A stretch of 64,000 nucleotides of DNA from contig OZ242948.1 of the NCBI GenBank assembly GCA_965211635.1, forward strand, positions 1,460,653 through 1,524,652, in the 5' to 3' direction. The notes under the pieces were generated by a model that was not told the DNA's origin, did not search any database, and saw nothing but the letters and a program-made list of their open reading frames with translations. The DNA is from Dehalococcoidia bacterium (GTDB lineage: Bacteria > Chloroflexota > Dehalococcoidia > Bin125). A program made the translations under genes and the position numbers. This document shows, in pieces, positions 14,451-31,072 of this stretch. Within the stretch, counting starts at the first letter, position 1. Every line of letters starts with the position of its first letter.

Positions 14451-17198
14451 TTAGTGCCCGGAAGGGATATTGGCGTCAAATCCCCAGGGCCTGGTGTCTC
14501 TTCCATCTTTGAGCGGTGGACTGATGAGCTCCACGCTTAGGTCGATCCCTTCTGGAATCCGAAAGTAGCGGACAGCCTCCATCGGCTCACCGCTCGGGTC
14601 ATAGCGCTTCCACCAGGAGCGGCCGTTGGAACGTAGCCCAACAACGTAGGCCCAGGCCTCCGATTGACGCTCCCACGTGGCAGTGACGGTCTGCTGCTTA
14701 CGCTCGATCGAGAGTTGTTGTGGTGGTCCGAGAGTAGTTACAGTCTGAGTCTTCGTCCAACGCAGGCGTTCGAGACTTCGATGCTGGGAGGATGGCTCGA
14801 ATCGAGCAAGTTGGTACTCATAAGACGTGACGGGCTTGAGCCCGTCCCACGTTCCACGACAGCGGAAATCTCCGTCCCGAGTTTGGCGTAGCTCCGTCGC
14901 GTAGTTCCAGTCGGCTGCGCCCAGCTCGCGCCAGCGAAGCGCCGTTGTGAAAGGCCAGTAGCGGCAGCTCCAACTCAACAGGACAACATGCCGATGGACG
15001 CTGCGCGCTGTGAGAGAGACACCGAAGGGGTCTTCTTCGGGGTCGGAAGCACCGTCCCACAACGTCGAAGGCCTGAACCAACCGACATGGGTATCACCAT
15101 TCGCGTCCATAACCGACACGTGCATATCGGCGGCAGTTCCGGGCGCATTGGTTCGGCAAGTGACGACGCTATGTCCGGAGCGCTCTTCTGTCTGGAAGCC
15201 CAACTGATCGCCCAGCGACACAGTGAACGGAGGCGCGCCGCCTCGGACGCCCCATAGGACCATGATGGGCGCTTGCTGAGCTGGAGGGCACGGGGAGAAC
15301 TCGGCTGTCACCCTGAGTTCAAGCGGGCTCCGCGCGTACCAACCATACCCGCCGCCACTGACTTCTCCATAGTTCACCGCGATCGCATCGACGGCCACCC
15401 AGTAGCTCTCGTCGTCCGGGTGAATGGGAATCGTTGCGCTGGTCACTTGCCCAACATCGACTACTTCGGCTTCTTCGTAGTTTCGGCGAACGTGGAGCCG
15501 ATACTCGAGAGCGACCTCGCTGTGCTCAGGTGGATCCCAGTGAATCTGCAGGGAGCCGGCTTGCTCCCAGATTCGAACGTTGCCCGGCGGGGTGACGACT
15601 GTGGGAATCCTTGCGGGGACTGACCACGGGGTCCACGCACCGTCTTGGAGCAGGCGTACTCGAAGAGACTGAGGAGCGGCGCCTGCATCCAGTTGAATCG
15701 TGAAGTCGCTGTCGCGGGATTCGCGGATGAAGGTGCGACCACGGGCCTGCCATGACAGCTCGGCCAACTCGGCGTCATTGGATTCCAAGTCGAATCTCCA
15801 AATGCCGGCGTAGATCCCGTAGTGACCGCCCGAGGTATCCACCCAGTGCAAGTCTACGAATGCAGGCGCCGCAGGCGGATCACCGGCGGTGAGCAGGTTT
15901 GGCTCATAGGTCGGCACGTGCATCTCTACCAGGCTGGTTCTCGGCGGCGCCGCGAGGGTGGACACTCGAATCTCAAGCGTGCCGCCCGGATGGTGCCAGG
16001 GCATCTGTAGCTGCGCGCGACTTTGACCCGCACTCACCTTCTCGCAGGACTGCTGCCACTGGAGCTCGAGCGAACGGGCGCAGACCCGAGTCTCGAAGCG
16101 AGATCCTACGGGAGGAGGTGTCCAGTTCACCTCCAGTTGCCTGTCTTCGACGGTCGCCTGTATGTCGGTCGGCGCCAAGATCAATGAAGACCATCCTTCA
16201 GGCGCCGGCTCTGTCCGTAACTCGAATCGATTGTGTTCCAAGGCGTATCCCCACTGATGACCTTGATCCAGATACACCCGTACGTGATAGAGGGTGTCGG
16301 GCAGGAGATCCTCAAAGCGCGCTTCAACGATCGGCTCGCCGCGAACTCCAAGCTCCAGCTCCGATCGATAGGGATATCCGGGCTGGACCGCGTAAAGCTC
16401 AGCAATGTAGCGTTGTCCGGATGTGTGCGGACCCCAGGTCAGCGTAATCGTGTCGTGTGTTGCTTCGGCCTGTAGTTCCCAGGGATGGTCAAGGATGGTC
16501 ACTGAAGTGGTCGGCGACCAGTTCAGCACCAATGGCGTCCGCAGGTCAAAGAGATGGCGAAGTTGGGCGGCCTGCAACTCGAGCCGCTCACCTCGATGTG
16601 TGAGCGCGGTTGTCCAGCGGGCGCTATCCGAGTCGTCGTTGGACCGTAGTCGGCGAAGGTGTTCGAGCGTCCACTCGGTGCTGCCCCTGACCCTCCAACG
16701 CAGTGCTATGTCGTCGGGACGCTGTCCCTCCGAAATCCCTGCAGTCCACCACCTTGCCCACAGGTACGCAGTGGAGGGCCCATATCCCTGATTAGAGACT
16801 TGAAGACGTACGGGAGCTGGCAGTCCCGGCACGAGCCGATGCTCCGAGGCGGCATAGGCGCGATTCCCCACCGAGTCGGTGACGCTGACGATTATCCTCT
16901 GGATGTCTTCGTTGCCGGGCGGTCCCGGACGGGTCCATCCTGCAGATGTTCGGCAAGGGATGTAGTGCGGGTCCGATGACTGCTCGACTGCCCGACCGTC
17001 GACGGTGAGCTGGTAGGGCGGTTGGCCTCCCTGGATGTCGTAGTCGAGCGTGGTGACGGAGCCGAGCGTGCAGGTCTCGCGGGTGGGCTGGACCGCAAGA
17101 CTCAAGGGTTCGGAGTCGTCAAGGCCGGCGACTGCGCCGCCGAGCAGTATCCACCAGGCAATCAGCGGCACAAAGGCTGCGGGCCAGCGACGTCGCAT
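14451..17198 (-). CDS. Large secreted/membrane-anchored protein with repeated beta-sandwich (FN3/Ig-like) modules
   Basis: N-terminal RRRW-hydrophobic anchor; 915 aa; repeated W..P..SG..Y.... blocks; no catalytic motif recognised. Confidence 0.55.
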   Translation of the reverse strand: MRRRWPAAFVPLIAWWILLGGAVAGLDDSEPLSLAVQPTRETCTLGSVTTLDYDIQGGQPPYQLTVDGRAVEQSSDPHYIPCRTSAGWTRPGPPGNEDIQRIIVSVTDSVGNRAYAASEHRLVPGLPAPVRLQVSNQGYGPSTAYLWARWWTAGISEGQRPDDIALRWRVRGSTEWTLEHLRRLRSNDDSDSARWTTALTHRGERLELQAAQLRHLFDLRTPLVLNWSPTTSVTILDHPWELQAEATHDTITLTWGPHTSGQRYIAELYAVQPGYPYRSELELGVRGEPIVEARFEDLLPDTLYHVRVYLDQGHQWGYALEHNRFELRTEPAPEGWSSLILAPTDIQATVEDRQLEVNWTPPPVGSRFETRVCARSLELQWQQSCEKVSAGQSRAQLQMPWHHPGGTLEIRVSTLAAPPRTSLVEMHVPTYEPNLLTAGDPPAAPAFVDLHWVDTSGGHYGIYAGIWRFDLESNDAELAELSWQARGRTFIRESRDSDFTIQLDAGAAPQSLRVRLLQDGAWTPWSVPARIPTVVTPPGNVRIWEQAGSLQIHWDPPEHSEVALEYRLHVRRNYEEAEVVDVGQVTSATIPIHPDDESYWVAVDAIAVNYGEVSGGGYGWYARSPLELRVTAEFSPCPPAQQAPIMVLWGVRGGAPPFTVSLGDQLGFQTEERSGHSVVTCRTNAPGTAADMHVSVMDANGDTHVGWFRPSTLWDGASDPEEDPFGVSLTARSVHRHVVLLSWSCRYWPFTTALRWRELGAADWNYATELRQTRDGDFRCRGTWDGLKPVTSYEYQLARFEPSSQHRSLERLRWTKTQTVTTLGPPQQLSIERKQQTVTATWERQSEAWAYVVGLRSNGRSWWKRYDPSGEPMEAVRYFRIPEGIDLSVELISPPLKDGRDTRPWGFDANIPSGH

Positions 17199-17237: not shown

Positions 17238-18032
17238 TTACGCGGTCACTCCGGCTAGGGCGAAGTTGCGGACGAGGTCGGCGAGGGCGGCAGGGGCCTC
17301 GAGGTCGGCGATGTGACCACTGCCCGCGAGTTCGACCGACTGCGCTCCGGGAATTGCGGCTCGCCAGATGTCGCCCATCTCGTGCGCGACGACGTTGTCG
17401 TGCTCGGAGGTGGCGATCAGCGTGCGCGTGTCGATCCGCACCAGTCGGCGTCCGACGCCGGTGTCGGGGATCGGCCAGAGGAACTTGGCCGAGGCGCGCA
17501 GGTCGAGCAGCTCCTCGACGTACGCGTCCATCGGGTCACGGTCGGCCATCAGCAGCTCGTTGCGCTTCTCGGGGTCGCTGAACAGGACGGCGGTGGGGAA
17601 GCCGGGATGCTGTGCGAACGGGTCCTCGCCGGGATGGTTCTCGGACCAGAGGCCGAGCGGATTAACCAGGGTCAGCGACTGCACGGCGTCGGGCCTGATG
17701 GCTGCGATCTCCGCGCCGATCCATGCGCCGATGCTGACGCCGACGACGTGCGCCGAACCGACGCCCAGCGTATTGAGCAGGTCGACGTTGAAAAGCACGA
17801 GGTCGAGTCCGTCGCGCACGCCGGGCAGGTCGTCCTTGGCCGGACCCCAGCCGGGCTGGTAGGGCGCGATCACATGGAAGTCTGAGGCCAGCGACTCGAG
17901 CGCGTCGCCCCAGCGCGGGATGCCGGTGATCGGGTGGAGGAACAGCAGTGCCGGGGAGTCGGCGTCGCCGCCCTGCCAGACGTGAGCGGTCTGTCCGCCG
18001 GGGGTGAGGTCAAGGGTGCTCAGTTCTGCCAT
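17238..18032 (-). CDS. Alpha/beta hydrolase
   Basis: HVVGVSIGAWIG nucleophile elbow (GxSxG); ATG at 18032 overlaps the upstream stop (TGATG). Confidence 0.7.
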   Translation of the reverse strand: MAELSTLDLTPGGQTAHVWQGGDADSPALLFLHPITGIPRWGDALESLASDFHVIAPYQPGWGPAKDDLPGVRDGLDLVLFNVDLLNTLGVGSAHVVGVSIGAWIGAEIAAIRPDAVQSLTLVNPLGLWSENHPGEDPFAQHPGFPTAVLFSDPEKRNELLMADRDPMDAYVEELLDLRASAKFLWPIPDTGVGRRLVRIDTRTLIATSEHDNVVAHEMGDIWRAAIPGAQSVELAGSGHIADLEAPAALADLVRNFALAGVTA

Positions 18033-19279
18033 CAGTTCACTCCTGCGAGATCGCGCCCCGGGGCGCGTGATTGTTGCGTCGCTATCGGTCGCGGCGACCA
18101 GTGGTCCTCGTGATCTTCCCACAAGTGTCGCAGACGCGGGATTACCTGCTCAGCAAACAGGCGCGTGCTGCGCAGGGTGAGGTCGTGTGGCATGTCGCCG
18201 ACGTGGAAGACGCCGATCAGGTGTCCGGCGCGGAGCGTCTTGACGAGGTGCTCCAACTGCTCGGTCACGGTCTGGGGCGAGCCCGCGGCGAGCGAGCCGA
18301 CGTCGAGGCGTTCCTGCCACGTCGGGATGCGCGACGGCTGCGGATTGGCCAGTTCCTCCATCGTCTGCGCGGCGCGCTCGCGGATGCCGCGTTCGGTGCG
18401 CCAGCCCGGAGCTTCGGTCCAGCCGGGGAAGTCGTCCAGCGTGTGGCGGGAGGAATACTCGAAGTGCGGCTCGTAGCGCTGCTGCGCTTCGTCGTCCGTA
18501 TCGGCGACGACGATGGTCTGCGAGACCGCGCCCTGGTAGGGGTTGGGCTCGACGCCGTGGATCTCGATGCGCGACCAGAACCCGTCCATCGCCGATTGCG
18601 CCGGGGCGATGCCGCGGCTGGCGAGGCAGACGTAGTTGTACCCGCGCTCGGCGCAGAAGTCCCAGGTCTCGGAGGAGATGCCGTCGGCGGGAATCCAGAT
18701 CGGAGGGTGCGGACGCTGGATCGGCCGCGGCCAGATGTTGACGTAGCGCAACTTGTCCGAGTCGCCATTCCAGGCGAAGACGTCCGGGTCCTGCCAGGCG
18801 CGCAAGATCAGGTCGTGGTGCTCGCGGTAGACCGAGCGAAAGTCGGAGGGATTCGCGCCGTAGGCGAAGTTGGCGTCCATCGGCGTGCCCAACGGGAATC
18901 CAGCGACAATGCGCCCGCCGGAGAGGACATCGAGCATGGCGATCTCTTCGGCGGCGCGGGTCGCAGGACGGTAGAGCGCAATCGACATGCCCAACATGAT
19001 GATCGCGGCGCGCGTCGTGCGGCGCGCCAGGACGGCGGCCATGAGCTGCGGCGACGGCATCAGGCCGAAGACGTGCTGATGATGCTCGTTGAGCACCAGC
19101 CCGTCAAACCCTGCCAGCTCGGCAAACTCAAGCTGGTCGAGGTACTCGTGATACAACTGGTGACCCTCGACCGAGTCGTACAACCGAGAGTCGGCGTCGA
19201 CCCAGACGGATCGGTTGCGCTCACGGAAGTCGTCAGGCAAATGCGGCCACGGCATCCCATGAAACCAGTGGAACTTCAC
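18032..19279 (-). CDS. LLM-class flavin-dependent oxidoreductase
   Basis: MKFHWFHGMPWPH...NEHHQ; paralog of 19399-20634. Confidence 0.85.
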   Translation of the reverse strand: MKFHWFHGMPWPHLPDDFRERNRSVWVDADSRLYDSVEGHQLYHEYLDQLEFAELAGFDGLVLNEHHQHVFGLMPSPQLMAAVLARRTTRAAIIMLGMSIALYRPATRAAEEIAMLDVLSGGRIVAGFPLGTPMDANFAYGANPSDFRSVYREHHDLILRAWQDPDVFAWNGDSDKLRYVNIWPRPIQRPHPPIWIPADGISSETWDFCAERGYNYVCLASRGIAPAQSAMDGFWSRIEIHGVEPNPYQGAVSQTIVVADTDDEAQQRYEPHFEYSSRHTLDDFPGWTEAPGWRTERGIRERAAQTMEELANPQPSRIPTWQERLDVGSLAAGSPQTVTEQLEHLVKTLRAGHLIGVFHVGDMPHDLTLRSTRLFAEQVIPRLRHLWEDHEDHWSPRPIATQQSRAPGRDLAGVN

Positions 19280-19284
19280 GAAGT

Positions 19285-19398
19285 CACCCAGCTTTGCCTG
19301 GTTTCCCGCTCCCCCTGCAAGGGGGAGCGGGGAAGATTTGGCAGCTCCCGTGGAAGGAGGGAGCGGGATTTCTCTTACAGCCGTTGATGCGGCTTTGG
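19285..19398. repeat. Family B hairpin repeat (CTCCCCCTGCAAGGGGGAG variant)
   Basis: GCTCCCGCTCCCCCTGCAAGGGGGAGCGGGGAAG ... GGAGGGAGCGGG between the two LLM paralogs. Confidence 0.7.
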
Positions 19399-20634
19399 TC
19401 AGTTCGATCCTGTCAGCACCGGAGCTGGTGTCGCGACCTGCTCGGAGTCGATTGGCTTCGGCGACCAGTGGTCTTCGTAGTCTTCCCAGATGTGCTTGAC
19501 CCTGGGCATGACTTGCTCAGCGAAGAGCTTGGTCGAGGCTCGAGCCTTGTCGTCGGGCATGTCGCCGACGTGCAGCAGGCAGACCAGGTGGCCGACCTGC
19601 AGCTTGGTCGCCAGCGCTTCGATCTGCTCGGTTACCGAGTCGGGCGAGCCGGCCACGATGTAGCCCTCGCGCACCCAGTCGTCCCAGGACAGCGTGTGGG
19701 CGACGCCCAGACCCTGCGCGCCGCCGGCGCGGAGACCGGCGCGGATCGTGTTCTCGGTGCGGTAGCCCGGCGCGTCGGCGAAACCGGGGTAGACGTGCAG
19801 GCACTTGTCGAAGAAGTACTGCATGTGCTCGGTGTACATCTGCTCGGCCTGATCGTCGGTCTCGGCGACCACGATCTGCTGCGCGAACGCGCCCTGGAAC
19901 GGGTTGAAGTCGACGCCCAGCTCGCCCAGCCGGTTCCAGAAGCCCTGCATCAGCGCCTCGCCACGGACGTAGCCGTTGAACGACAGATACGAGTAGTTGT
20001 AGCCCATCTCGGCGCAGAAGTCCCAGGTCTCAACCGAGCCGCCGCCGGGAATCCAGATGGGCGGGGGCTGCTGGATCGGGCGCGGCCAGAGGTTGACGTA
20101 GCGAATCTTGTTGTACTCGCCGTTCCAGGAGAAGACCTCCGGGTCCTCCCAGGCGCGGCGGATCAGGTCGTGGTTCTCGCGGTACTTGTCACGCAGCGTG
20201 GCTGGGTTCGAGCCGAAGCAGAAGTTGTCGTCCATTGACGTGCCGACCGGGAATCCCGCGACCAGGCGGCCGCCCGACATCACGTCGAGCATCGCCATCT
20301 CTTCCGCCACACGGGTCGGCGGGTTGTACAGGGCGATCGACTGACCCAGCAGCAGCAGCGTCACGTCCTTGGTCCGACGCGCTAGCGACGCCGCCATGAT
20401 CTGCGGCGAGGGCATCATCCCGTAGGCGTTCTGGTGATGCTCGTTGACGCCAATCCCGTCGAAGCCCAGATTGGCCGCATACTCAAGCTGGTCGAGGTAC
20501 TCGTTGTACACCCGGTGCCCCTCGACCGGGTCGTAGAGCCGAGAGTCGACATCGACCCAGACGGAGCGATTCGTCTCGCGGAAATCGTCCGGCAGGTGAG
20601 GCCAGGGCATCAGGTTGAACCAGTGGAACTTCAT
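19399..20634 (-). CDS. LLM-class flavin-dependent oxidoreductase (paralog)
   Basis: MKFHWFNLMPWPH start at 20634 within the longer ORF; about 70% identical to 18032-19279. Confidence 0.85.
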   Translation of the reverse strand: MKFHWFNLMPWPHLPDDFRETNRSVWVDVDSRLYDPVEGHRVYNEYLDQLEYAANLGFDGIGVNEHHQNAYGMMPSPQIMAASLARRTKDVTLLLLGQSIALYNPPTRVAEEMAMLDVMSGGRLVAGFPVGTSMDDNFCFGSNPATLRDKYRENHDLIRRAWEDPEVFSWNGEYNKIRYVNLWPRPIQQPPPIWIPGGGSVETWDFCAEMGYNYSYLSFNGYVRGEALMQGFWNRLGELGVDFNPFQGAFAQQIVVAETDDQAEQMYTEHMQYFFDKCLHVYPGFADAPGYRTENTIRAGLRAGGAQGLGVAHTLSWDDWVREGYIVAGSPDSVTEQIEALATKLQVGHLVCLLHVGDMPDDKARASTKLFAEQVMPRVKHIWEDYEDHWSPKPIDSEQVATPAPVLTGSN

Positions 20635-20743
20635 GGGAAAACTCCTTGCGTCGGAGGCAGTCGCGGGTATCGAAGTCAGTGTAGACGGTGGCATGCCGAA
20701 TCAGGAGTAGACTCGAACGTGAGGTAGGGAGCGAGTTCGGTTC

Positions 20744-21061
20744 GTGAGCAAACCCATCAACGACGACATCCGATTCATGCTGGCGGGCGGGCCTCGCGTC
20801 CCCCGTCCCGAGGATCCCGACGCCTGGCGAGCGATCTGCGATTCCTACGAGCGCAACGAGGCCTGGTACGACGAGCACGTTGACGAGGTGTGGGCAGACC
20901 GAAGCGAGGCGTGGGTCGTGGTCTACGATGACGCGTGCCTCAGGGCCTCCAACGATCTGACTGGTTTGTTCAGGTGGCTCAGCGACCAGGAGCCGCTGAG
21001 TCGGATTGGCGCGTATGGTCCGGTGACCAGACCTGGACAAAACAGGGCCCTGATCCTTTGA
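20744..21061 (+). CDS. Hypothetical small protein (possible partner of the downstream protease)
   Basis: 105 aa with GTG start; W.VVYDD..L.AS.DL..L motif weakly reminiscent of DUF5678-like small proteins (low confidence). Confidence 0.35.
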   Translation: MSKPINDDIRFMLAGGPRVPRPEDPDAWRAICDSYERNEAWYDEHVDEVWADRSEAWVVVYDDACLRASNDLTGLFRWLSDQEPLSRIGAYGPVTRPGQNRALIL

Positions 21062-21120
21062 GCCGCACTGTCCAAGGTCACTTTCGTCAGACCCCAGGCG
21101 CGTCGTCCCTGGTCCCGGCC

Positions 21121-21540
21121 ATGCCCTTCGTCAACGTGCGCTTCCCGGGTACCACCGGAGAATTCGGGTACGAGTTCCTGATCGACACGGGCGCAGATTT
21201 CACCACTCTCAACCCGCGAGACGCCGTCGCCGTCCTCGGCGCCGGGTACTTCAACATCGACTTCGCCGATACCGTCCGGCAGATCAGGATGACCGGGATC
21301 GGCCAGGGCGATTCGGTTGGCCTGCTGTTTCCATCAGAGCTACAACTGCTGGCGTCCGATGGCGAGTGGATCAACGTCGAACTCCCAATCCTCATTCCGG
21401 AACCTATGCCGCGTGTCCCCGGAGATCATGGCAACTGGCAGCTTCCCTCACTCCTCGGCCGAGACATCCTCAGCCACTTCGACCTCGCCCTCTCCTACAA
21501 GCCGCCCGCGGTCTCGCTGACGGAGGCGGCGCTGGTGTGA
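21121..21540 (+). CDS. Retropepsin-like (clan AA) aspartic protease
   Basis: FLIDTGADFTTL (D-T-G-A active-site signature) followed by the GIGQG flap-like segment; about 139 aa single domain. Confidence 0.7.
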   Translation: MPFVNVRFPGTTGEFGYEFLIDTGADFTTLNPRDAVAVLGAGYFNIDFADTVRQIRMTGIGQGDSVGLLFPSELQLLASDGEWINVELPILIPEPMPRVPGDHGNWQLPSLLGRDILSHFDLALSYKPPAVSLTEAALV

Positions 21541-21577
21541 TAGGTTGGCTCGCTACGCTGACGATGGGAGCTAGCCA

Positions 21578-22129
21578 ATGACCATCAAGCAACCCCCCGA
21601 CGCCACTGCCCAGGAACTGCTGAGCGCAGCCCGCGAGCTGGCTTGGTCCGACGACGAATCCGCCGCCGTCGACGCCTACGACTGCGCCATCCGCGCAGTC
21701 GAGCAGGCATTCCGCAGCATCGCCACGCCCGACAACCCCACCGACGACCTCGGCGTGATCCTCAAGCACTGGCAAGACCGTCCCGACCTCTGGTGCGAGG
21801 GCTACTCCAGTGTCCTGGATATCGACACGGTCATGCCGGTGCTCGCTGATCTCTGGGAGAGACGACCGGAAGCGGATGAGGCCTTCCCTGTGTCTCTCGA
21901 AGACGCCCGCACTGCGCTGGTAATCGCCGAATGGATCCTGAAGCTGTTCGACCTGGGCTTCATTGAACTCCTGGACGAACTCACGCCTGAGGAAGAGGCG
22001 GCGGATCTAGCGTTGGCGGAACAGCGATCGCGGGAGCGCGAAGAACGCAAGCGTCTCGGGGTGGAGGAGGAGACCATCCCGTGGGAGGAAGTGGAAGAGC
22101 GTCTTGCCGCCCGGTGGCGTAAGGAATGA
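21578..22129 (+). CDS. Antitoxin-like protein: unknown N-terminal domain plus C-terminal CHP02574-like addiction-module component
   Basis: C-terminal ...EETIPWEEVEERL tail typical of RelE-partner antitoxins; GGGAG ribosome-binding site 7 nt before the ATG; ATGA overlap with the RelE gene. Confidence 0.5.
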   Translation: MTIKQPPDATAQELLSAARELAWSDDESAAVDAYDCAIRAVEQAFRSIATPDNPTDDLGVILKHWQDRPDLWCEGYSSVLDIDTVMPVLADLWERRPEADEAFPVSLEDARTALVIAEWILKLFDLGFIELLDELTPEEEAADLALAEQRSREREERKRLGVEEETIPWEEVEERLAARWRKE

Positions 22130-22404
22130 CAGACAGGTCGCGGCTGCCCTATCGGGTCGTCACAGAGCCGAGAGTTGAACGGCAGTTGGCGCGTCTCGAG
22201 AGGCGGGACCTTGCTTCAGTCAGGAAGAAGATTCGCGGCCTCGCCGTCGAGCCTCGTCCGCGGCGAGTGCTCCACCTCGGAGACAGTGAGTATCGTGTGC
22301 GCCAGGGCAACTGGCGCATCTTCTACGACATCAATGACGCCGAGCGAATCGTCACCATCACCGACGTCCTACGCCGAAACGAACGCACCTATCGTGATCG
22401 CTAG
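22126..22404 (+). CDS. RelE/ParE family toxin
   Basis: Y.V......L..L...........I..L...P......L.G....YRVRQGNWRIFYDI.D....V.I..V..R..Y pattern. Confidence 0.75.
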   Translation: MTDRSRLPYRVVTEPRVERQLARLERRDLASVRKKIRGLAVEPRPRRVLHLGDSEYRVRQGNWRIFYDINDAERIVTITDVLRRNERTYRDR

Positions 22405-22634
22405 CCGCGCGGCGGGAACGGGTCCTTTGCCGGAGGGATTGTGTTCTTCTGGCGAATCTGTCCCTGCTTGTTATGGGTAACCAGTTCGCCACCACCTTGC
22501 TTGGCCAAGCCTCGGCGAGCCGCTCGCTGAGCTGCCGCCTGGGTCCCGTGAACGCTCGACGCCCGCTGATTGCCCGCCTTCTTGTTTGCCCAACCATTGC
22601 CTCGGGGTGTCACGTGCCTAGCATTGCGAGCCAT
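22401..22634 (-). CDS. DUF2188 domain protein
   Basis: MARNARHVTPRGNGWANKKAGNQRASSVHGTQAAAQRAARRGLAKQGGGELVTH..GQIRQKNTIPPAKDPFPP matches the DUF2188 consensus nearly position by position. Confidence 0.6.
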   Translation of the reverse strand: MARNARHVTPRGNGWANKKAGNQRASSVHGTQAAAQRAARRGLAKQGGGELVTHNKQGQIRQKNTIPPAKDPFPPRG

Positions 22635-22683
22635 TTTCGACCCTTCATGTACTCGACGGCTTCGATTTCGATCAGCCGACTAT

Positions 22684-22989
22684 TCAGTTGTACCGAGATG
22701 AAACCCAGTTGTCAATCCTCGGTTCGCTTGTCCAACAACCGACCCACCAACTCCTCCACCCGCCGACCCTCCGGCGACTCCGACAGCCACTGGCGTATCT
22801 CCCGACGTGCGACCGTGACCGACGTGGATTGGCCGTTTTCCTCCCGCTCGGCCCGAATCTGGTCCCACAGAGCCTTCGCGCCGGCCGCAGCATCCTTACC
22901 AGCCTGGGCAATCTCGACGTGCAGCGAGTCGGAGTCGTCGTATCATTCGTTGGAACGGGGCGCGACTGCGCCGTAGGACTCTCCCTCAT
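22684..22989 (-). pseudogene. Small ORF disrupted by a +1 frameshift / in-frame TGA
   Basis: Frame A gives MRESPTAQSRPVPTND...; the adjacent frame gives a protein-like DDSDSLHVEIAQAGKDAAAGAKALWDQIRAEREENGQ...LDKRTED with no start of its own. Confidence 0.3.
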
Positions 22990-23009
22990 CGGGACGGGAA
23001 AGCGATATT

Positions 23010-23615
23010 GTGCCGCTCTTTCGCCGAAATCCCGACGGGAACGCGTTCAATGAGCGACTCTCCTTGCCTTATGAGCTTAGGACTCAGGATTTCTCCCTTG
23101 TCATGCAGGACGTCTATGACTTCTTCTACGATGTGAACACTCATCTGCAGGGCAAGGGCATCAGGCGACTTGACGAAATGCTGCGACCAGCTGCAATGTC
23201 AGGCCTCATCTCCGACATGGTCTCGGCGAGTTTGGCTCGCCACTCACGAGTCTTGGTCGAGAATACCTATCACAACGGCCATCCGGACCTCATTGTTAAC
23301 GGAGTCTACCCGAACGACTCGGTCAAGTCCGGGTCGGAGGGCGTCGAGATCAAGACAACACGCAAACGCGGCGGCGCGGTTGATACTCACGGCGCACGCG
23401 ACCAATGGATGTGTGTGTTCGTCTACCAAGTCGACAACACTACGGAACCTGCCGTCGACAGAGCTCCAATGCGTTTCACAGAAATCTATCTTGGCCATGT
23501 GACGGTTGATGACTTTCGTCGGAATCCCCGCGGGGAGTTGGGAACGAGAACTGCGACCCTTGACAGATATGGCATTCGAAAGCTCCGCCAGAGCTGGGTG
23601 TACTTGGACACTTAA
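23010..23615 (+). CDS. Type II restriction endonuclease (PD-(D/E)xK)
   Basis: GHPDLIV...(20 aa)...EGVEIKT catalytic motif; lower GC (about 53%) than surroundings; convergent with and overlapping the MTase gene. Confidence 0.6.
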   Translation: MPLFRRNPDGNAFNERLSLPYELRTQDFSLVMQDVYDFFYDVNTHLQGKGIRRLDEMLRPAAMSGLISDMVSASLARHSRVLVENTYHNGHPDLIVNGVYPNDSVKSGSEGVEIKTTRKRGGAVDTHGARDQWMCVFVYQVDNTTEPAVDRAPMRFTEIYLGHVTVDDFRRNPRGELGTRTATLDRYGIRKLRQSWVYLDT

Positions 23616-24789
23616 TCTTCTCCAGTGCAGGAATAGCCGATTCGGCCACCTTCACATACCGGGAGTCGTGTTCTATGCCGACGCTACTGAACTCGAAGTG
23701 ATTGGCCGCCGCCAGAGTAGAGCCGGAGCCGGCAAACGGATCCAGGATGACGCCTTGCTCCATGGGCAGCGCCGCTCGAACCAGCTGCCTCAAGAACGCT
23801 TGTGGCTTCAACGACGGATGCGGCGCCAGTTCTTTCTCTTTGGGTCGCGTTGGACTCGATCTGATGACGTCGCCGAAAGGCCGTTGGTCCGACAACCTTC
23901 GTAAACCGCCTGTCCCCCAGGTCCTGAGGTTGTCTTGCACGCGGCCTTCCAGGGGCTTGCGAAACAGCAACCATGGTTCGGACATCGACCGGGGCATGAC
24001 AGTGACCTGCGAAAACTCATCATGGGCGTTCTTCGGGCGATCGCCACCGCGCATTGTCATCACGAGACGCGTCACAACCCCTCGGTTCTCGAGTCCCGAA
24101 CTCGCGAGGGCTGACGCGACCACATGCGACACCAGTGGATTGGAGGCGACGAACACATGGGCTCCAGGCACCAGCACTCTGGTTGCTTCGTGTCCAAGGC
24201 GATGAAAGAACTCACTCATGTATTGCAAGTCTGCGGCCTTTAGTGTCGTAAACCGAGGTACGGGCGACCTTTGGTGTCCATCAAACGATGGAGGGATTCT
24301 CCAAACACCGCCCTTGCCCTCGCGCAACTTCTGCTGCTCCGTCTCCGTGTACTCGACTAAGCCGTAAGGAGGGTCTGTGACTATCGCATGAAAGCTGTTC
24401 TCTGAGCAAGACCGGAACCACTCAAAGCAATCGGCTTGATACAGCGCTGCGCCTCCGTGTTCGAGTGTGGGAGCGTTGTAGTAGGCGACGGATTCCTCGA
24501 CAGATGGCCGGGCTCTCAAAGCGGTCCTCTTCAACCGATACAGACCATGCCCCGTTCTTTCAAATGTGTCGGGACGAAGCCGCAAGTACGACCGCACTGA
24601 GGACGCGGGTACGTGGCCAAGTTCTGCCTCAACGGCACTTCTGATCTCTGTCACGCTCGCATCTCCATACAGCCCGCCTAGGAAGCCGACTATCGCATCC
24701 CTGACGGTGCCTGGCGAGTGTTTGCGCTGTGTCACGCTGCGTCTCCTTGCGTCAGGGTTCAAGGTAGACGTCCAGACGTCAAAAGGCAA
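23476..24789 (-). CDS. Beta-class DNA methyltransferase (N4-C/N6-A) with N-terminal winged-helix-like extension
   Basis: Motif IV AIVTDPPYGL precedes motif I VILDPFAGSGSTLAAA (beta-class order); C-terminal tail overlaps the REase gene by about 140 nt. Confidence 0.8.
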   Translation of the reverse strand: MPFDVWTSTLNPDARRRSVTQRKHSPGTVRDAIVGFLGGLYGDASVTEIRSAVEAELGHVPASSVRSYLRLRPDTFERTGHGLYRLKRTALRARPSVEESVAYYNAPTLEHGGAALYQADCFEWFRSCSENSFHAIVTDPPYGLVEYTETEQQKLREGKGGVWRIPPSFDGHQRSPVPRFTTLKAADLQYMSEFFHRLGHEATRVLVPGAHVFVASNPLVSHVVASALASSGLENRGVVTRLVMTMRGGDRPKNAHDEFSQVTVMPRSMSEPWLLFRKPLEGRVQDNLRTWGTGGLRRLSDQRPFGDVIRSSPTRPKEKELAPHPSLKPQAFLRQLVRAALPMEQGVILDPFAGSGSTLAAANHFEFSSVGIEHDSRYVKVAESAIPALEKIKCPSTPSSGGAFECHICQGSQFSFPTPRGDSDESHQPSHGQDRFL

Positions 24790-24952
24790 GGCTCTGTCGA
24801 GCGGAGCCAGCGATGGAGCGGCGGAGCGGGACCCCCTCCGCCTTCGGCACTTCCCCCTGCAAGGGGGAGGGGGAAGAGTGAGGCCTGGGTCTCCAGAGGG
24901 ACAGGGGCGAGATCGTCAGTGGGCTAGACCAACCCGCACATACACTGACTGC

Positions 24953-25834
24953 ATGAGCTCCCGCGATGCGACCTGCTATCGGCATACGGATACCTGGGCG
25001 GGGGTTCTTTGCCAGCGTTGCAACCGGCCGATATGCACGCAGTGCATGGTTCAGGCTCCGGTCGGCTTTCAGTGTCCGGAGTGCGTGGCCGAGGGGCGGC
25101 GACGGACTCGCGAGTGGTCGACGGCGTCGCCTTACCGGGTCACACAGGCGTTGGCGCTGGTCAACGCGCTGATCTGGCTGGTCGTATCGGTGTACACGGG
25201 GTCGCTGTCGCTGTGGGGCAGCGGTGTCAGCGAGATTCACCGCGACTTTGCGCTGCACGGGGCGTTTGTGCATGAGGAGGGCGAGTGGTGGCGGCTGGCT
25301 ACGTCGGCGTTCCTGCACTACGGGCTGCTGCACATGGTGATGAACATGTTCATCCTCGTGCTGCTGGGTCGGATGCTGGAGCCGGCGATCGGCGGCTGGA
25401 GGATGCTGCTGCTGTACGCGGTGTCGCTGACCGGCGGCGCGCTGGGCGCGCTGCTGGTCGAGCCGAACGCGTTCACGGCGGGGGCGTCGGGCTCGGTCTT
25501 CGGCTTGGCCGGCGCGGTGGTGATCGCCGAGCGAGCATCGGGTCGGCGCTGGCAGGACTCGGGCATCCTGGTGTTCCTGATCATCAACATCGTCTTCTCG
25601 CTGCTGATTCCAAGGATCAGCATCGGCGGACACCTGGGCGGGATGATCGTGGGCGCCGTGGCGGCGTTGATCCTCTGGAGTTTCCCCAACTGGACGGGAT
25701 TCATCCGCACGGCGACGAACATCAAGGTGCTGCGTCCGCTGCCGGAGCTGTCGGTCTTCGGACTGGGCGTGCTCTGCGTCTACCTGGCGCTGGAGCTGGC
25801 GGCGCCTCGCTGGTCGGATCCGCTCTTCGGGTAG
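24953..25834 (+). CDS. Rhomboid-family intramembrane serine protease with N-terminal zinc ribbon
   Basis: C..C.....C..C zinc ribbon; GASGSVFGL (catalytic Ser) and GHLGG (catalytic His); multiple TM helices. Confidence 0.8.
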   Translation: MSSRDATCYRHTDTWAGVLCQRCNRPICTQCMVQAPVGFQCPECVAEGRRRTREWSTASPYRVTQALALVNALIWLVVSVYTGSLSLWGSGVSEIHRDFALHGAFVHEEGEWWRLATSAFLHYGLLHMVMNMFILVLLGRMLEPAIGGWRMLLLYAVSLTGGALGALLVEPNAFTAGASGSVFGLAGAVVIAERASGRRWQDSGILVFLIINIVFSLLIPRISIGGHLGGMIVGAVAALILWSFPNWTGFIRTATNIKVLRPLPELSVFGLGVLCVYLALELAAPRWSDPLFG

Positions 25835-25839
25835 CGGCT

Positions 25840-25980
25840 TTCTCTCTACCCCCGCTCTGAGGGGGGGAGGTGTCGCGTAGCGACAGAGTGGGGCTGCGAG
25901 GAGATTGCAGAAGTCGGCGTGCCCCCTTCAGTCCCTACGGGACAGCTTCCCCCAAAGGGGGGAAGCGGGAAAAGGCGCCG
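25840..25980. repeat. Family B hairpin repeats (two units, one inverted)
   Basis: CCCCGCTCTGAGGGGGGG..GTCGCGTAGCGAC.. and CAGTCCCTACGGGACAGCTTCCCCCAAAGGGGGGAAG. Confidence 0.7.
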
Positions 25981-26021
25981 ACTATCATCTCCATGAGCAC
26001 GACGAAGAGAGGCAGCAAGCA

Positions 26022-26798
26022 ATGAGTGATCGATTCGAAGGCAAGGTGGCAATCGTGACCGGCGCGGCCGGGGGCATTGGACGGGCGGCGTGTGTGCGAT
26101 TCGCGTCGGACGGCGCGAAGGTGGTCGCGGTCGATCTGGCGGGCTCTGACCTGGACGAAACCGTGGCTGCGATCTCTAACGCTGGCGGCGAGTGCATCAC
26201 GGTCGAGGCCGACGTGACGCAGGAATCGGACGTAGCCAACTACGTGGCCGAGGCGCTGTCGGCCTACGGTCGCGTTGACGCCTTCTTCAACAACGCCGGC
26301 ATCGAGGGCGTACGCTCGGCGCTGACCGAACTGGACGAAGCCGACTTCGATCGTGTGATCGCGGTCAACCTCAAGGGGGTCTGGCTGGGGATGAAGCACG
26401 TCGCGCCGGCGATCCAGCAGTCGGGCGGCGGGGCGATTGTCAACACCGCGTCGATCGCCGGTCTGTCGCCGACACCGGGCATCATCGCCTACGGCGCGTC
26501 CAAGCACGCGGTGGTCGGGATGACCAAGTCGGCCGCGCAGGAGCTCGCGCCCGACATTCGCGTCAACGCGGTCTGCCCGGGACCGATCGAGACGCGCATG
26601 ATGCGCTCGTTGGAGCGCCAGTTCGATCCGGACAATCCCGAGGCCGTCCACCAGATGTTCGCCGCATCCAATCCCATGGGTCGCTACGGCGAGCCGGAGG
26701 AAGTCGCCTCGCTGGTCACGTGGCTGTGCTCGGATGACAGCGTGTACATCAACGGAGCGGCCCACACGATCGACGGCGGCGGCAATCGGGGACGCTAG
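26022..26798 (+). CDS. SDR-family oxidoreductase
   Basis: TGAAGGIGRA Rossmann motif; NNAG; YGASK catalytic tetrad. Confidence 0.85.
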   Translation: MSDRFEGKVAIVTGAAGGIGRAACVRFASDGAKVVAVDLAGSDLDETVAAISNAGGECITVEADVTQESDVANYVAEALSAYGRVDAFFNNAGIEGVRSALTELDEADFDRVIAVNLKGVWLGMKHVAPAIQQSGGGAIVNTASIAGLSPTPGIIAYGASKHAVVGMTKSAAQELAPDIRVNAVCPGPIETRMMRSLERQFDPDNPEAVHQMFAASNPMGRYGEPEEVASLVTWLCSDDSVYINGAAHTIDGGGNRGR

Positions 26799-28051
26799 CG
26801 GTCTTGTTGCTCGCTGAGTCTGGTTCGCTGGACGATGGCGCGATCGATCAGACCATCAATGGTGGGGTCGACGTTGCGCAGAACTATGCGGGACATGAAC
26901 GCTCGCGGGCCAAGCTCCACGAATAGTCGGCCGAACACCTCGTCGGCGAAGCTGCTTGTTATGACATTTACGCCGGCGAAGTCCACGACGACCTGGCCTT
27001 GAACCCTGAGGAGGTTTCGCAGCTCTTGCCGCACTCGGGCACCCCCTCGTCTCGACCCGAGATCTCGTCCTGCATGTTGCGAGATCGCGTACAGGGTCTC
27101 GCCGATGTCCGTCTCAAATGTCCGCTCGACGTAGTCGCTCGCAATCTGGTGAGTCTCACCGTCGAATCGAAGCGCCTCTTCGAGGAGCTGACCATCGAAG
27201 CGCCCAATTGAACAGCGAACCGAGGTACCCGGAAGGGAGACTTGATCCTCGCGGATGTGCGGTTCCGGGAGACTACTGTCAGATCTGAGCACCGCCCTCA
27301 GCGAATGGACTTCGAACTCTCCGTGAGAGACGGCGGAGATTCGGCGACTGCCGTACAGACCGTTGCCCGCGTTCGACATGCGATCACGAGTACCACCTTC
27401 GGAAACAGCCTCCAACAGCGCCTGTTTTTCGTCTTCCATGGTCAGACTACCGGGAATCCCTATTCCGGCGTCTGCAACAACAAACTCGATGAATGACGGA
27501 TCTTCGGAGGCTTGAACAAATCCTCCTACTGTCGACTGAGCATGAGTAAGGACATTCTCTGTCACTTCGTTGATCGACCACTCCAGGGCCTTGAGCGTCC
27601 CGCGCCCGATGTCTCGACCTCGCAACAGAAACCGCAACAGATCATTGATCGCATCGGACATCTCCGAATGGTTCACGTATCTCCTAACAGGTACCCGATC
27701 TTGAGCCTCGCTTAACGCTGCAAACTCCTCTGGTTGAATAAAGTGCGCCCAGTTAGTACGGACAAATTTGTCATTCAGTGATGATTCAAGTGAGGATCCC
27801 GTAGCGTCGGGCAGCTTCAGATCGAACTGAGCGCCATGCTCCTCGCGATACCGGACTATCTGAGGGAGAATTGGTAACATCACCGCCTGGGTCAGGTTGG
27901 CGCAGGCGCCAAAATCTAACTGGACTCTGTCTGTTCCGCCTTCATCAATCGTCTGCCGCAAGCCTTCGAAGAGCAATCGAATTGCTTGCGTGTCCGCGAT
28001 TTCGCCCCTGGCGGTGACCGTATCGTCGGACCAGAGAATCTCGAACGACAC
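26795..28051 (-). CDS. Three-domain protein: N-terminal STAS-like, RsbW-like GHKL Ser-kinase/ATPase, C-terminal DUF4325 (STAS-like)
   Basis: E..N..H N-box (EWSINEVTENVLTHAQ) and VADAGIGIP G1-box; C-terminal VVVDFAGVNVITSSFADEVFG...RIVLRNV as in DUF4325; GC about 50-57%, well below the flanks. Confidence 0.6.
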   Translation of the reverse strand: MSFEILWSDDTVTARGEIADTQAIRLLFEGLRQTIDEGGTDRVQLDFGACANLTQAVMLPILPQIVRYREEHGAQFDLKLPDATGSSLESSLNDKFVRTNWAHFIQPEEFAALSEAQDRVPVRRYVNHSEMSDAINDLLRFLLRGRDIGRGTLKALEWSINEVTENVLTHAQSTVGGFVQASEDPSFIEFVVADAGIGIPGSLTMEDEKQALLEAVSEGGTRDRMSNAGNGLYGSRRISAVSHGEFEVHSLRAVLRSDSSLPEPHIREDQVSLPGTSVRCSIGRFDGQLLEEALRFDGETHQIASDYVERTFETDIGETLYAISQHAGRDLGSRRGGARVRQELRNLLRVQGQVVVDFAGVNVITSSFADEVFGRLFVELGPRAFMSRIVLRNVDPTIDGLIDRAIVQRTRLSEQQDR

Positions 28052-28080: not shown

Positions 28081-29136
<1,056 letters not shown>

Positions 29137-29185
29137 GTCGTGCCTCCTGTGGCTCTCTGTACTCAATCCTACGTGAGTGTCGACG

Positions 29186-31072
29186 TTACTCGCCGGCCAT
29201 CTTGACGATTGCCTCGGTCAGATTGCGCGCCGAGAGTGGCTGGCCGGTGACTTCGTTGTAGCCGCGGGCGTCAATCAGGAAGTTGGCTCGAATCAGCATT
29301 CGCAGCTGGCCGGTGTTGGCCTCGGGAATGAGCACCTTCTTGTAGCGCGAGACGACATCGCCGAGGTTGCGCGGGAACGGGTTGAGATACTGGAGGTGCG
29401 CATGCGCGAGTTCATGTCCGGCTTCGCGCGCGTCGTTGACAGCCGTGAACACCGCTCCGTAGGTCGAACCCCAACTGAGGACGAGCAAGTCGCCCGACTC
29501 GGGGCCGTCGACCTCGATCTCAGGGATGAAGTTGGCGATGCGTCGGATTTTCTCGCCGCGCAGGTCGGTCATGCGCTGGTGATTTTCCGGCGAGTAAGCG
29601 ACATCGCCGGTGATGTCGGACTTCTCCAGGCCGCCGATGCGGTGCTCGAGGCCCTTGGTGCCGGGCGGCACGAACATGCGCGCCAGTGTTTCAGGGTCGC
29701 GACTGTACGGCTCGAAGTCCTCGGGGCTGATGTGTTCGAGCTTGCGGTAGGGCACGTCAATCTTGTTGAGCTGGGTGATGTCCGGGACCGGCCAGGGTTC
29801 GGCGGTGTTGGCCAAGTAGGTGTCGGAAAGCAGCACGACCGGGGTAACGAATTGGAAGGCGAGTCGAACCGCCTCGAGGACCATGTAGAAGCAGTCACCC
29901 GGTGACTTTGCGGCGAGAATGCAGAGCGGGGACTCGCCGTTGCGGCCGAACATGACCTGGAGCAGATCGGTCTGCTCGGTCTTGGTGGGCATGCCGGTGG
30001 AGGGACCGGAGCGTTGCACATCGAGAACGAGCAGCGGGAGTTCTGTCATGACGGCGAGGTTGAGCGCCTCGCTCTTGAGCGCGATGCCAGGACCGGAGGT
30101 GCCGGTCACGCCGAGCCCGCCACCGTAGGCGGCGCCGATCGCGGTGCCGATGGCTGAGATTTCGTCTTCAGCCTGGAATGTGCGAACGCCGAACTCGCGC
30201 AGCGCGGCGAGTTCGACCAGCACGTCGGAGGCGGGCGTGATCGGGTAGGAGCCGTAGAACAGCTCCAGATCCGTGAGGTGGGAGGCGGTGATGAGGCCAA
30301 GGACAAGGGCCTGGTTGCCGGTGATTGTTCGGTACTCGCCTGGCGTGAGGACAGCTGGCGGGACGCGGACGTGGGCGTCGGCGATCTCGGTGGTTTCGCC
30401 GTAGGCGTGTCCGGCGAAGAGTGCACGCCGGTTGGCCTCGGCGATGTTGGGCAATCGGCCGAAGCGCTGGTCGATCCAATCGAGCGTCGGCTGCAGGTCG
30501 CGGTCGTAGAGCCAGTAGACGAGACCAAGAGCAAAGAAGTTCTTGGTCCGCTCGGCGTTCTGGGTGGTCAGGCCGAGGTCGTCAACGGCGGCGATCGCGG
30601 CGGTCGTGATCGGCGCCTTGATGATTCGATAGTCGTCGAGCGAACCGTCGGCAAGTGGATTGCTGGGGTAGTTGGCCTTCTTCAGGTTGCCGGAGGTGAA
30701 GGCGTCCTCATTGACGACGAGCAGCCCACCCTTGGTCAGAGCGGAGAGGTGAGACTTCAGCGCGGCGGGGTTCATGGCGACAAGCGTGTCGGGTTCATCG
30801 CCAGGCGTGAAGATCTGGTGCCTAGAGAACGAGATCTGGAAGCTGGAGACACCGGCGAGCGAACCGGCAGGAGCGCGGATCTCGGCGGGGAAGTCGGGCA
30901 GCGTGGAGAAATCGTTGCCGAAGATGGCTGTGGCGTCGGCAAAGCGATTGCCGGCCAACTGCATGCCGTCACCGGAGTCGCCCGCAAAGCGGACGGTGAC
31001 GCGGTCGCGTTCCTGGATCGGTGCGGCAGCGGTTTTTCCCGATCCGTTCGCCTGCGGTGAAGTGGTGGTCAT
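29186..31072 (-). CDS. korA: 2-oxoglutarate/2-oxoacid:ferredoxin oxidoreductase alpha subunit
   Basis: 628 aa KorA-type (pyruvate-flavodoxin oxidoreductase core domains); upstream partner of korB. Confidence 0.85.
   Translation of the reverse strand: MTTTSPQANGSGKTAAAPIQERDRVTVRFAGDSGDGMQLAGNRFADATAIFGNDFSTLPDFPAEIRAPAGSLAGVSSFQISFSRHQIFTPGDEPDTLVAMNPAALKSHLSALTKGGLLVVNEDAFTSGNLKKANYPSNPLADGSLDDYRIIKAPITTAAIAAVDDLGLTTQNAERTKNFFALGLVYWLYDRDLQPTLDWIDQRFGRLPNIAEANRRALFAGHAYGETTEIADAHVRVPPAVLTPGEYRTITGNQALVLGLITASHLTDLELFYGSYPITPASDVLVELAALREFGVRTFQAEDEISAIGTAIGAAYGGGLGVTGTSGPGIALKSEALNLAVMTELPLLVLDVQRSGPSTGMPTKTEQTDLLQVMFGRNGESPLCILAAKSPGDCFYMVLEAVRLAFQFVTPVVLLSDTYLANTAEPWPVPDITQLNKIDVPYRKLEHISPEDFEPYSRDPETLARMFVPPGTKGLEHRIGGLEKSDITGDVAYSPENHQRMTDLRGEKIRRIANFIPEIEVDGPESGDLLVLSWGSTYGAVFTAVNDAREAGHELAHAHLQYLNPFPRNLGDVVSRYKKVLIPEANTGQLRMLIRANFLIDARGYNEVTGQPLSARNLTEAIVKMAGE

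Follow-up and report, generated by a model that had tools for sequence, protein, structure and literature searches.

A probable defence hotspot beside native genes and a fixed, allelically diverged GHKL-STAS locus in a Dehalococcoidia chromosome

We analysed a stretch of 64,000 nucleotides from the genome of a Dehalococcoidia bacterium (assembly GCA_965211635.1, contig OZ242948.1, positions 1,460,653 to 1,524,652), here referred to as the window. Within it, an initial annotation had flagged positions 20744-28051 as a composite accessory stretch with patchy low GC content, a defence and addiction hotspot between two housekeeping blocks. Our findings point to three different things that lie side by side in these 7.3 kb: a hotspot for defence and toxin-antitoxin (TA) genes that has no integrase; two native genes, coding for a rhomboid protease and a short-chain dehydrogenase/reductase (SDR); and a gene for a putative phospho-switch, GHKL-STAS, which is fixed in place and strongly diverged in sequence. 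We consider this combination the probable explanation of the stretch as a whole. At present, the hotspot cargo would consist of a two-gene cassette with a retropepsin-like protease, a ParE/RelE-type toxin with an antitoxin of 183 amino acids (aa), a DUF2188 protein, and an acquired Type II restriction-modification (R-M) system that would have replaced a Type IIG enzyme.

Family searches with Pfam, NCBIfam, PADLOC and PHROG profiles recovered all genes previously listed for 20744-28051 at about the same positions, while no Rfam matches were found. The flanking blocks were also as claimed, with genes for luciferase-like monooxygenases (LLM) on one side and korB and korA on the other (Pfam). The features are, in order of position (E-values follow the profile names):

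19399-20694, minus strand: LLM-class monooxygenase, left flank of the hotspot (PF00296, 1.3e-37)
20744-21061, plus strand: 105-aa partner protein, directly upstream of the protease gene
21058-21540, plus strand: retropepsin-like aspartic protease of 160 aa with an intact catalytic DTG (motif and predicted fold)
21578-22129, plus strand: putative antitoxin of 183 aa, overlapping the toxin gene by ATGA
22126-22404, plus strand: ParE/RelE-superfamily toxin of 92 aa (PF05016, 34.4 bits against a cut-off of 23)
22401-22634, minus strand: DUF2188 protein of 77 aa, second-slot cargo (PF09954, 7.7e-21; PADLOC candidate PDC-S16, 2.1e-22)
22733-22942, minus strand: 3' fossil of a Type IIG (Eco57I/MmeI-like) gene (tblastn and nucleotide matches)
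23010-23615, plus strand: Type II restriction endonuclease of 201 aa, PD-(D/E)xK type by a PD...EIK motif in the translation
23476-24735, minus strand (open reading frame, ORF, to 24789): beta-class N6A/N4C DNA methyltransferase with an additional N-terminal domain (PF01555, 4e-19)
24852-24877, no strand: GC hairpin CCCCCTGCAAGGGGG, resembling repetitive extragenic palindromic (REP) elements, at the edge of the R-M cassette that faces the rhomboid gene
24953-25834, plus strand (true start about 24953): rhomboid intramembrane protease with an N-terminal zinc ribbon (PF01694, 8e-30)
26022-26798, plus strand (true start 26022): SDR oxidoreductase (PF13561, 1.2e-63)
26795-28051, minus strand: GHKL-STAS protein of 418 aa, composed of STAS, SpoIIAB-like GHKL serine kinase and DUF4325 (Pfam and PADLOC)
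28081-29166, minus strand: korB, 2-oxoacid:ferredoxin oxidoreductase (Pfam)
29186-31072, minus strand: korA, 2-oxoacid:ferredoxin oxidoreductase (Pfam)

A variable slot between the rhomboid and LLM genes

The window was compared with 12 syntenic relative loci (L160-L169 and L174-L176), which were reached via a metagenome scan anchored on the LLM gene and via the loci of GHKL-protein homologues, and most of which lie on circular or megabase-sized contigs (2.3-3.6 Mb). Three more distant loci (L081-L083) served as outgroup, and one truncated close locus (L086) was used in addition. A korB-anchored scan of species-representative genomes yielded, among the matches listed, identities of at most 62% and no close synteny.

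All clade loci share a common order of korA, korB, GHKL/DUF4325, SDR, rhomboid, a variable slot, LLM and a hydrolase gene. The genes that frame the slot are well conserved. The LLM protein at 19399-20694 is 91-95% identical in all clade loci, KorA and KorB are 86-96% identical across the clade, and the rhomboid protease is found at the same position in all clade loci with 70-84% identity. Measured against the window proteins, KorA and KorB of the relatives show 86-91%, the SDR 82-92% and the rhomboid protease 70-83% identity. The SDR is 82-93% identical across the clade, and the outgroup loci have an SDR in the corresponding place with 59-63% identity; in the clade loci the SDR gene is convergent with the GHKL gene, and the stop codons of the two overlap by 4 nt. 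The rhomboid and SDR genes are thus native conserved genes of the clade and belong to the backbone, not to the cargo.

Gene order is not conserved between the rhomboid and LLM genes, and because of this the interval at about 20,695-24,950 is a genuine variable hotspot for defence and TA genes. In L169 the slot is empty, and only 366 bp separate the rhomboid and LLM genes. The slots of L160, L164 and L168 carry an Eco57I-like Type IIG enzyme of 939-1034 aa, those of L162, L163, L165 and L166 an MmeI-like Type IIG enzyme, and that of L161 a Type IIG remnant of 213 aa. Small genes of other kinds also occur in the slots of relatives. L176 has the same Type II pair of methyltransferase and endonuclease as the window, together with a gene for a 298-aa protein in place of DUF2188. 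Altogether, at least five differing cargo sets occurred among the 12 syntenic loci, and the modules vary independently of one another. In the outgroup, L081 shows a compact korA-korB-SDR-LLM arrangement with neither the GHKL gene, the rhomboid gene nor the island, and in L082 and L083 the SDR and LLM genes are separated by three metabolic genes. The hotspot proposed by the initial annotation therefore stands for 20,695-24,950; it does not extend to the rhomboid, SDR and GHKL-STAS genes, which are fixed in every clade genome examined.

The cargo is enriched in genes with matches to defence profiles. In the window, PADLOC matched the methyltransferase (MTase_II) and DUF2188 (PDC-S16); in the relatives, it matched REase_MTase_IIG (1.9e-71 and 6e-62), PDC-S21 and a fragment of PD-T4-4_A. 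To these the ParE/RelE pair is added. Decayed genes also occur in the hotspot of the relatives: L163 has a DUF4917/PDC-S21 gene that is split into two ORFs (16067-17161), and L164 retains a C-terminal piece of 155 aa of a PD-T4-4_A/Gabija-like ATPase (17406-17873).

Chromosomal defence hotspots flanked by core genes are described for the pan-genomes of E. coli and Pseudomonas. The present locus resembles them in its conserved core flanks, in its variable content including an empty site, in its cargo of R-M, TA and candidate defence genes, and in the presence of decayed remnants. It differs in that the host belongs to an uncultured Chloroflexota clade and in that there is neither an integrase nor a mobile-element backbone. 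A further difference is that the conserved 3' end of the Type IIG gene appears to serve as one homology arm in turnover. Cargo would thus be gained, lost and replaced by recombination, with conserved flanks and cargo remnants providing the homology.

Some further observations concern the edges of the hotspot. Additional intergenic copies of a GC-rich palindrome with the CCCCCTGCAAGGGGG core are located at 19310-19336 (between two LLM genes), 39449-39470 and 42700-42726; palindromes of this type, REP-like in appearance, also occur in intergenic regions of the relatives, in several places in L162. In L086, the gene beside the LLM gene (93% identical) codes for a 355-aa protein (52-1119, minus strand), the C-terminal half of which resembles the 183-aa antitoxin of the window (30%). 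The 125-kb contig of L086 ends at this gene, as would be expected if assemblies break at the variable site. A second LLM paralogue in the window (18032-19279, minus strand) is 57-63% identical to the copies of the relatives, except for that of L161 (81%). Most relatives have a single LLM gene here, so that the 'housekeeping' LLM block also varies in copy number.

Base composition was referred to 36 long ORFs outside the flagged region, which have a GC content of 0.658 ± 0.020 (window average, 64.9%). The only compositional outliers in the flagged region are the genes for the endonuclease (0.551, z -5.3), the methyltransferase (0.578, z -3.9) and the GHKL protein (0.565, z -4.6). The TA and protease genes are at 0.61-0.64 (z -0.9 to -2.2), and the rhomboid (0.664, z 0.3) and SDR (0.667, z 0.4) genes have a native-like composition. 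The patchy low GC content reported at the outset is therefore real, but it is confined to two patches, the R-M pair and the GHKL gene, and the value of about 53% given for the R-M genes was slightly too low.

Cargo modules of the hotspot

The Type II cassette provides the clearest trace of turnover. The fossil at 22733-22942 forms one open frame of 70 aa that is 81% identical to residues 964-1033 of the 1034-aa Type IIG enzyme of L160 and 64-67% identical to the matching parts of the L162 (64%) and L161 proteins; a shorter piece of the same relic is kept in L176. The slot therefore formerly held a Type IIG enzyme, of which the Type II cassette (about 22,943-24,934) replaced all but the last 210 bp. 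The 'pseudogene' of the initial annotation was thereby borne out as a 3' remnant by tblastn. Two ORFs in this area (22684-22989 and 22986-23144, both minus strand) were not accepted as genes: they encode low-complexity or anonymous sequences, and the Type IIG fossil together with the start of the endonuclease gene accounts for the region.

The methyltransferase scored 69.9 bits against PF01555 (cut-off 26.7) and 3.3e-107 against the PADLOC model. The endonuclease matched no Pfam family and no relative in the PDB. It is, however, 69-71% identical to the products of unannotated genes on ColE1-type 4.9-kb plasmids of Klebsiella and on plasmids of Gordonia, Ralstonia, Pseudomonas, Iamia and Mycobacterium. 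In both plasmids inspected (Klebsiella pCol4401-L117 and Gordonia pGRS1), the endonuclease gene is convergent with a gene for a methyltransferase of 372-374 aa. These plasmid methyltransferases are 56-59% identical to that of the window over the full length, and the DPPYG and FAGSGS motifs align. The L176 cassette is closer, with 85% identity for the endonuclease and 75% for the methyltransferase. The convergent pair has thus been co-inherited in the window, in L176 and in the two plasmids, and its horizontal acquisition is well supported. Its plasmid counterparts, with 56-71% identity, come from several phyla. The plasmid and window cassettes are alike in their convergent 201-aa endonuclease and beta-class methyltransferase. 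They differ in that the window cassette is chromosomal and its methyltransferase has about 43 extra C-terminal residues. Since the ORF of the methyltransferase continues for about 43 codons beyond the point at which the plasmid homologues end, the two genes overlap by 140 nt in the window (23476-23615); the overlap amounts to 100 nt in L176 and to 4 nt on the Klebsiella plasmid. As judged from family membership, the predicted methyltransferase would protect the host DNA, and the nuclease would cut unmodified incoming DNA.

At the LLM side of the slot, the protease gene starts at a TTG that overlaps the stop codon of the partner gene by 4 nt (TTGA). The 105-aa partner matched no Pfam, NCBIfam, PADLOC or PHROG profile, and the protease itself remained below the Pfam gathering thresholds of RVP, Asp_protease_2 and gag-asp_proteas (16.8, 16.4 and 16.1 bits against 20.7, 24.3 and 28.2, respectively). 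Some of its homologues carry precomputed domain matches to these families, and the AlphaFold2 (AF2) model of the window protein has a predicted retropepsin fold (pLDDT 91.6). The protease family comprises 103 database clusters with an invariant LIDTG(A/S), GxG element and PSLLGRD. Each homologous protease gene examined is directly preceded by a gene for a protein of about 95-107 aa, and in many cases, as in L178, the two genes overlap by 4 nt; these partner proteins are weakly alignable and share a weak motif. L161, L162, L164, L166 and L176 possess the pair, and L160, L163 and L169 lack it. Between clade genomes, the protease is 42-45% identical, compared to more than 90% for the adjacent LLM protein. 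On an unrelated metagenomic contig (L177, 3673-6182), two tandem cassettes (107+157 aa and 95+157 aa) lie beside cofD and cofC of F420 biosynthesis.

In architecture and behaviour, this small-protein/protease cassette may be likened to a TA or defence cassette. The window protease is similar to bacterial retropepsin-like proteases (Rickettsia APRc/ApRick; Pfam Asp_protease_2 and RVP) in its predicted fold, DTG and LLGRD, and differs from them in its sub-threshold Pfam scores and in the constant presence of an upstream gene for a partner of about 100 aa. It is a realistic possibility, short of a probable one, that the two proteins instead act together in processing or maturation and serve the cell, for example in proteolytic regulation of the kind known from RimB or secreted retropepsins. 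This would agree with the regulatory or stress roles that two reports describe for characterised bacterial retropepsin-like enzymes (PMC11957791, PMC12239564), and with the finding that no defence-database model (PADLOC, PHROG) matched either the protease or the partner. A cellular role is less easily reconciled with the presence or absence of the pair between close relatives, its divergence next to highly conserved flanks, the tandem duplication in L177, the invariably tight two-gene layout with overlaps and the location in a defence hotspot.

Adjacent to this cassette, the ParE/RelE toxin also matched the RelE-like toxin family of PHROG (6.9e-12), while its 183-aa partner gave no match in Pfam, NCBIfam, PADLOC or PHROG. 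The family of the latter consists of 55 database clusters, none with a Pfam domain; its named members are from Chloroflexota, and it appears to be restricted to this lineage. One relative's copy shows a weak C-terminal match to Unstab_antitox, and the core of the protein is shared by longer proteins in L161 (314 aa), L162 (290 aa) and L086 (355 aa). L160, L162 and L176 have an intact pair of a 183-aa-type gene and the toxin gene, and L161 has a degraded one. Because the L169 genome with its empty hotspot keeps two homologues of the 183-aa protein elsewhere (P0237 and P0244, on one contig of 3,278,079 bp), the ParE pair may move within genomes. As in ParE/RelE type II TA systems, the toxin is above the Pfam cut-off and the upstream gene overlaps by ATGA; unlike in these systems, the putative antitoxin is long, a DNA-binding domain is not recognisable in it, and its family is small. 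By analogy to its family, the stable toxin would enforce the retention of the unstable antitoxin. The neighbouring DUF2188 gene was absent from all relatives compared, in which other genes occupy its position. The PADLOC 'PDC' models are candidates only, which weighs against counting DUF2188 as a defence gene.

Several features elsewhere in the window are worth recording. Upstream of the flagged stretch, a 1031-aa protein (3629-6724, minus strand) has N6_Mtase, MmeI/Eco57I-like and Type_ISP_C domains, and its gene overlaps by 4 nt with that of a 193-aa pentapeptide-repeat protein (6721-7302, minus strand). Together, these two genes may represent a second R-M or a BREX-like defence locus. Near the Type ISP-like gene are genes for a protein of the uracil-DNA glycosylase (UDG) superfamily (949-1839, plus strand) and for a small protein with a GIY-YIG nuclease domain (2729-3019, minus strand). 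Between the LLM genes and the hydrolase gene, a 915-aa ORF with a fibronectin type III match (14451-17198, minus strand) has a GC content of 0.616, which is atypical for the window. On the other side, the gene for a periplasmic binding protein next to korA (31755-33290, minus strand) is another fast-changing locus, as its product is only 58-67% identical across the clade compared to 87-93% for its neighbours; some relatives have a duplicate of the gene, and in L163 and L165 it is broken into fragments.

A fixed locus with diverged GHKL-STAS alleles

In every clade genome, the GHKL-STAS gene comes directly after korB and has the same orientation; the gap is 29 bp in the window and 3-40 bp in the relatives. 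The presence of the gene at this locus is fixed; its alleles are hypervariable. Pairwise identity of the GHKL proteins is 48-72% where that of KorA and KorB is 87-96%. Between L160 and L161, KorA is 96% and GHKL 69% identical, and between the window and L176 the values are 95% and 52%. At the nucleotide level, identity falls from about 0.85-0.92 to 0.40-0.64 at the 3' end of korB and recovers within the last approximately 250 bp of the GHKL gene, so that the valley lies between the 3' end of korB and the 3' portion of the gene that codes for DUF4325. Mean pairwise identity per domain reflects this pattern (N-terminal domain 48%, kinase 54%, linker 51%, DUF4325 72%). Clustering at 90% identity gave a similar contrast, with cluster sizes of 67 for KorA, 98 and 134 for SDRs and 25 for LLM versus 1 for GHKL, 1 for ParE and 2 for the antitoxin.

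All GHKL alleles are low in GC (0.52-0.57), with a GC content at third codon positions (GC3) of 0.54-0.65 compared to 0.81-0.90 for korB. The rate of non-synonymous substitution (dN) is 0.20-0.48, against 0.03-0.09 for korA and korB. Because the ratio to synonymous substitution (dN/dS) stays at about 0.07-0.12, the alleles appear to be functional and under purifying selection; dS is not strictly comparable between genes of low and high GC3, and the dS comparison is accordingly not conclusive and counts as a reservation. To judge from these patterns, the divergence most likely arose as recombination replaced alleles at a fixed locus.

Profile searches assigned 537 clusters (at 50% identity, E ≤ 1e-30) to the GHKL-STAS family, nearly all of them stand-alone proteins of 400-430 aa. 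The AF2 model of the window protein is confident (pLDDT 92.5, pTM 0.90), and its predicted architecture is a STAS domain, followed by a SpoIIAB-like kinase and a VapS-like STAS domain (DUF4325). The predicted fold matches SpoIIAB and RsbW plus STAS domains. The N, G1 and G2 boxes of the kinase are invariant (E162/N166/H170, D194xGxG198 and G229NGLxG234), as is an SSFADE motif at 366-371, with SSSFADE as its longer form, across the alleles. The family profile matched a single protein in the PDB, the VapS of Escherichia (9z7o, E 8e-5), and a pairwise alignment places the invariant S366 opposite the serine at position 66 of the VapS chain, a residue that equals S48 if the 134-residue chain has an 18-residue tag. 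CapK, a kinase with helix-turn-helix (HTH), STAS and GHKL domains, is switched on by single-stranded DNA (ssDNA) and phosphorylates the repressor CapS, which consists of STAS and a winged HTH (wHTH) (Chambers et al., EMBO J 2026, PMC13373217). VapK/VapS/VapC is a related system; both sense DNA damage, and S48 is the phospho-acceptor of VapS (PMC13373217).

GHKL-STAS shares two class features with CapK and VapK, namely a STAS domain with an anti-sigma-type GHKL kinase, and a STAS substrate with a conserved serine; the TA-rich and prophage contexts of its homologues are a further likeness. In another lineage, stand-alone homologues are found in a stretch between nusB and purB that also contains RES, PemK, PIN and RelB genes, and homologues of 417 aa occur as prophage morons, between capsid and integrase genes or between endolysin and baseplate genes. 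The layout is different: GHKL-STAS is a single fused ORF, with kinase and substrate in one 418-aa chain, and has neither an HTH, wHTH or PIN domain, nor a VapC-like effector, nor a regulated immune operon. In the window, it sits behind korAB with korB and the convergent SDR gene as neighbours, and activation by ssDNA would be by analogy only. GHKL-STAS is also unlike SpoIIAB-SpoIIAA and RsbW-RsbV in being a single chain with two STAS-like domains and in having no cognate sigma factor or phosphatase gene nearby. An assignment of the gene as a fragment of the DISARM protein DrmA was rejected, as the PADLOC DrmA match is limited to positions 99-393 of the 1750 in the profile. Neither a helicase domain nor drm neighbours are present; the match only indicates that fusion of this module to DrmA can occur.

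GHKL-STAS is most likely a single-chain analogue of CapK/CapS and VapK/VapS, as suggested by the structural model and by these likenesses. A stress signal, plausibly ssDNA from DNA damage or phage infection as for CapK and VapK, would activate the GHKL kinase, which would then phosphorylate S366 in its own C-terminal STAS domain and change what the STAS domain or the kinase binds. That the family as a whole is a self-contained, fused CapK and CapS sensor-switch, which converts DNA damage or phage signals by autophosphorylation into a defence or stress output and whose allelic divergence reflects an arms race or balancing selection via allele exchange, is a tentative idea that we offer with some doubt. 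The literature on DUF4325 is almost empty, and the GHKL-STAS family is uncharacterised in the searchable literature.

Competing explanations and significance

The tight packing of defence and addiction modules, with overlapping stop and start codons, and the two low-GC patches might suggest a single mobile genomic island, recently acquired and spanning the entire 7.3 kb. Pfam detected no integrase or transposase domain in any ORF of the region, no tRNA genes were found, and direct or inverted repeats around the modules occurred only at chance level. Because there is no integrase, tRNA or flanking repeat and because the modules vary independently, the flagged stretch is not one element. With the rhomboid, SDR and GHKL genes fixed in all clade genomes and the first two native-like in GC content, a single island is refuted by the synteny data and retains next to no probability. 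The opposite idea, that the low-GC patches only reflect gene-specific constraint such as amino acid usage or low expression in an ordinary chromosome with lineage-specific loss, agrees with the low GC of the GHKL gene in every relative despite long residence, and with the single broad branch of its alleles. We nevertheless regard it as very improbable: vertical descent cannot account for the identity of the endonuclease to Klebsiella, Ralstonia and Gordonia plasmid genes, the Type IIG fossil indicates replacement instead of loss, and the slots of the relatives hold non-homologous systems.

For GHKL-STAS, several observations weigh against a role as an exchanged defence switch. The protein lacks an effector domain, its gene has no conserved partner, and the position of the gene on the same strand close behind korB in every clade genome also fits a housekeeping regulatory role. 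No terminator is predicted between korB and the GHKL gene, in a scan for sigma-70 promoters and terminators that was at or below shuffle expectation and is uninformative. In a neighbour-joining (NJ) tree, all clade alleles fall into one broad group, which would also fit simple rapid evolution; the identity patterns are likewise compatible with ancient polymorphism. GHKL-STAS could therefore be a housekeeping regulator that is co-transcribed with korAB, for example a partner-switching kinase acting on metabolism or a sigma factor, and that diverged by relaxed constraint. Its nearest structural relatives, SpoIIAB and RsbW, are classic regulators of sigma factors, and purifying selection would be in line with such a role. 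We consider this unlikely, since the gene is absent from the outgroup locus L081, which has the same korAB-SDR arrangement. In addition, its low GC persists, its divergence at non-synonymous sites is 3-7 times that of the flanks and is decoupled from host relatedness, its homologues are found in the TA cluster between nusB and purB and as prophage morons, the module matches the N-terminus of the PADLOC DrmA model, and the C-terminal domain matches the antitoxin VapS. A stress- or defence-related phospho-switch, exchanged as alleles at a fixed locus, is thus the reading that we favour for GHKL-STAS.

As a defence island, the region represents an ordinary phenomenon in a little-studied phylum. 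It provides a clean natural example of the replacement of an R-M cassette without an integrase, with a fossil of the prior occupant and an empty site for comparison, and may help to explain the turnover of defence hotspots in uncultured bacteria. Two leads stand out, the retropepsin cassette and the fused CapK/CapS-like family. The former is a reproducible two-gene protease cassette with a TA-like organisation, uncharacterised in the searchable literature. The latter is a large unstudied family in which a CapK/VapK-like kinase is fused to its putative STAS substrate and whose member in the window behaves like a polymorphic immune gene. If functional alone, GHKL-STAS would be the simplest version of the CapK/VapK signalling logic and an easy target for experiments.

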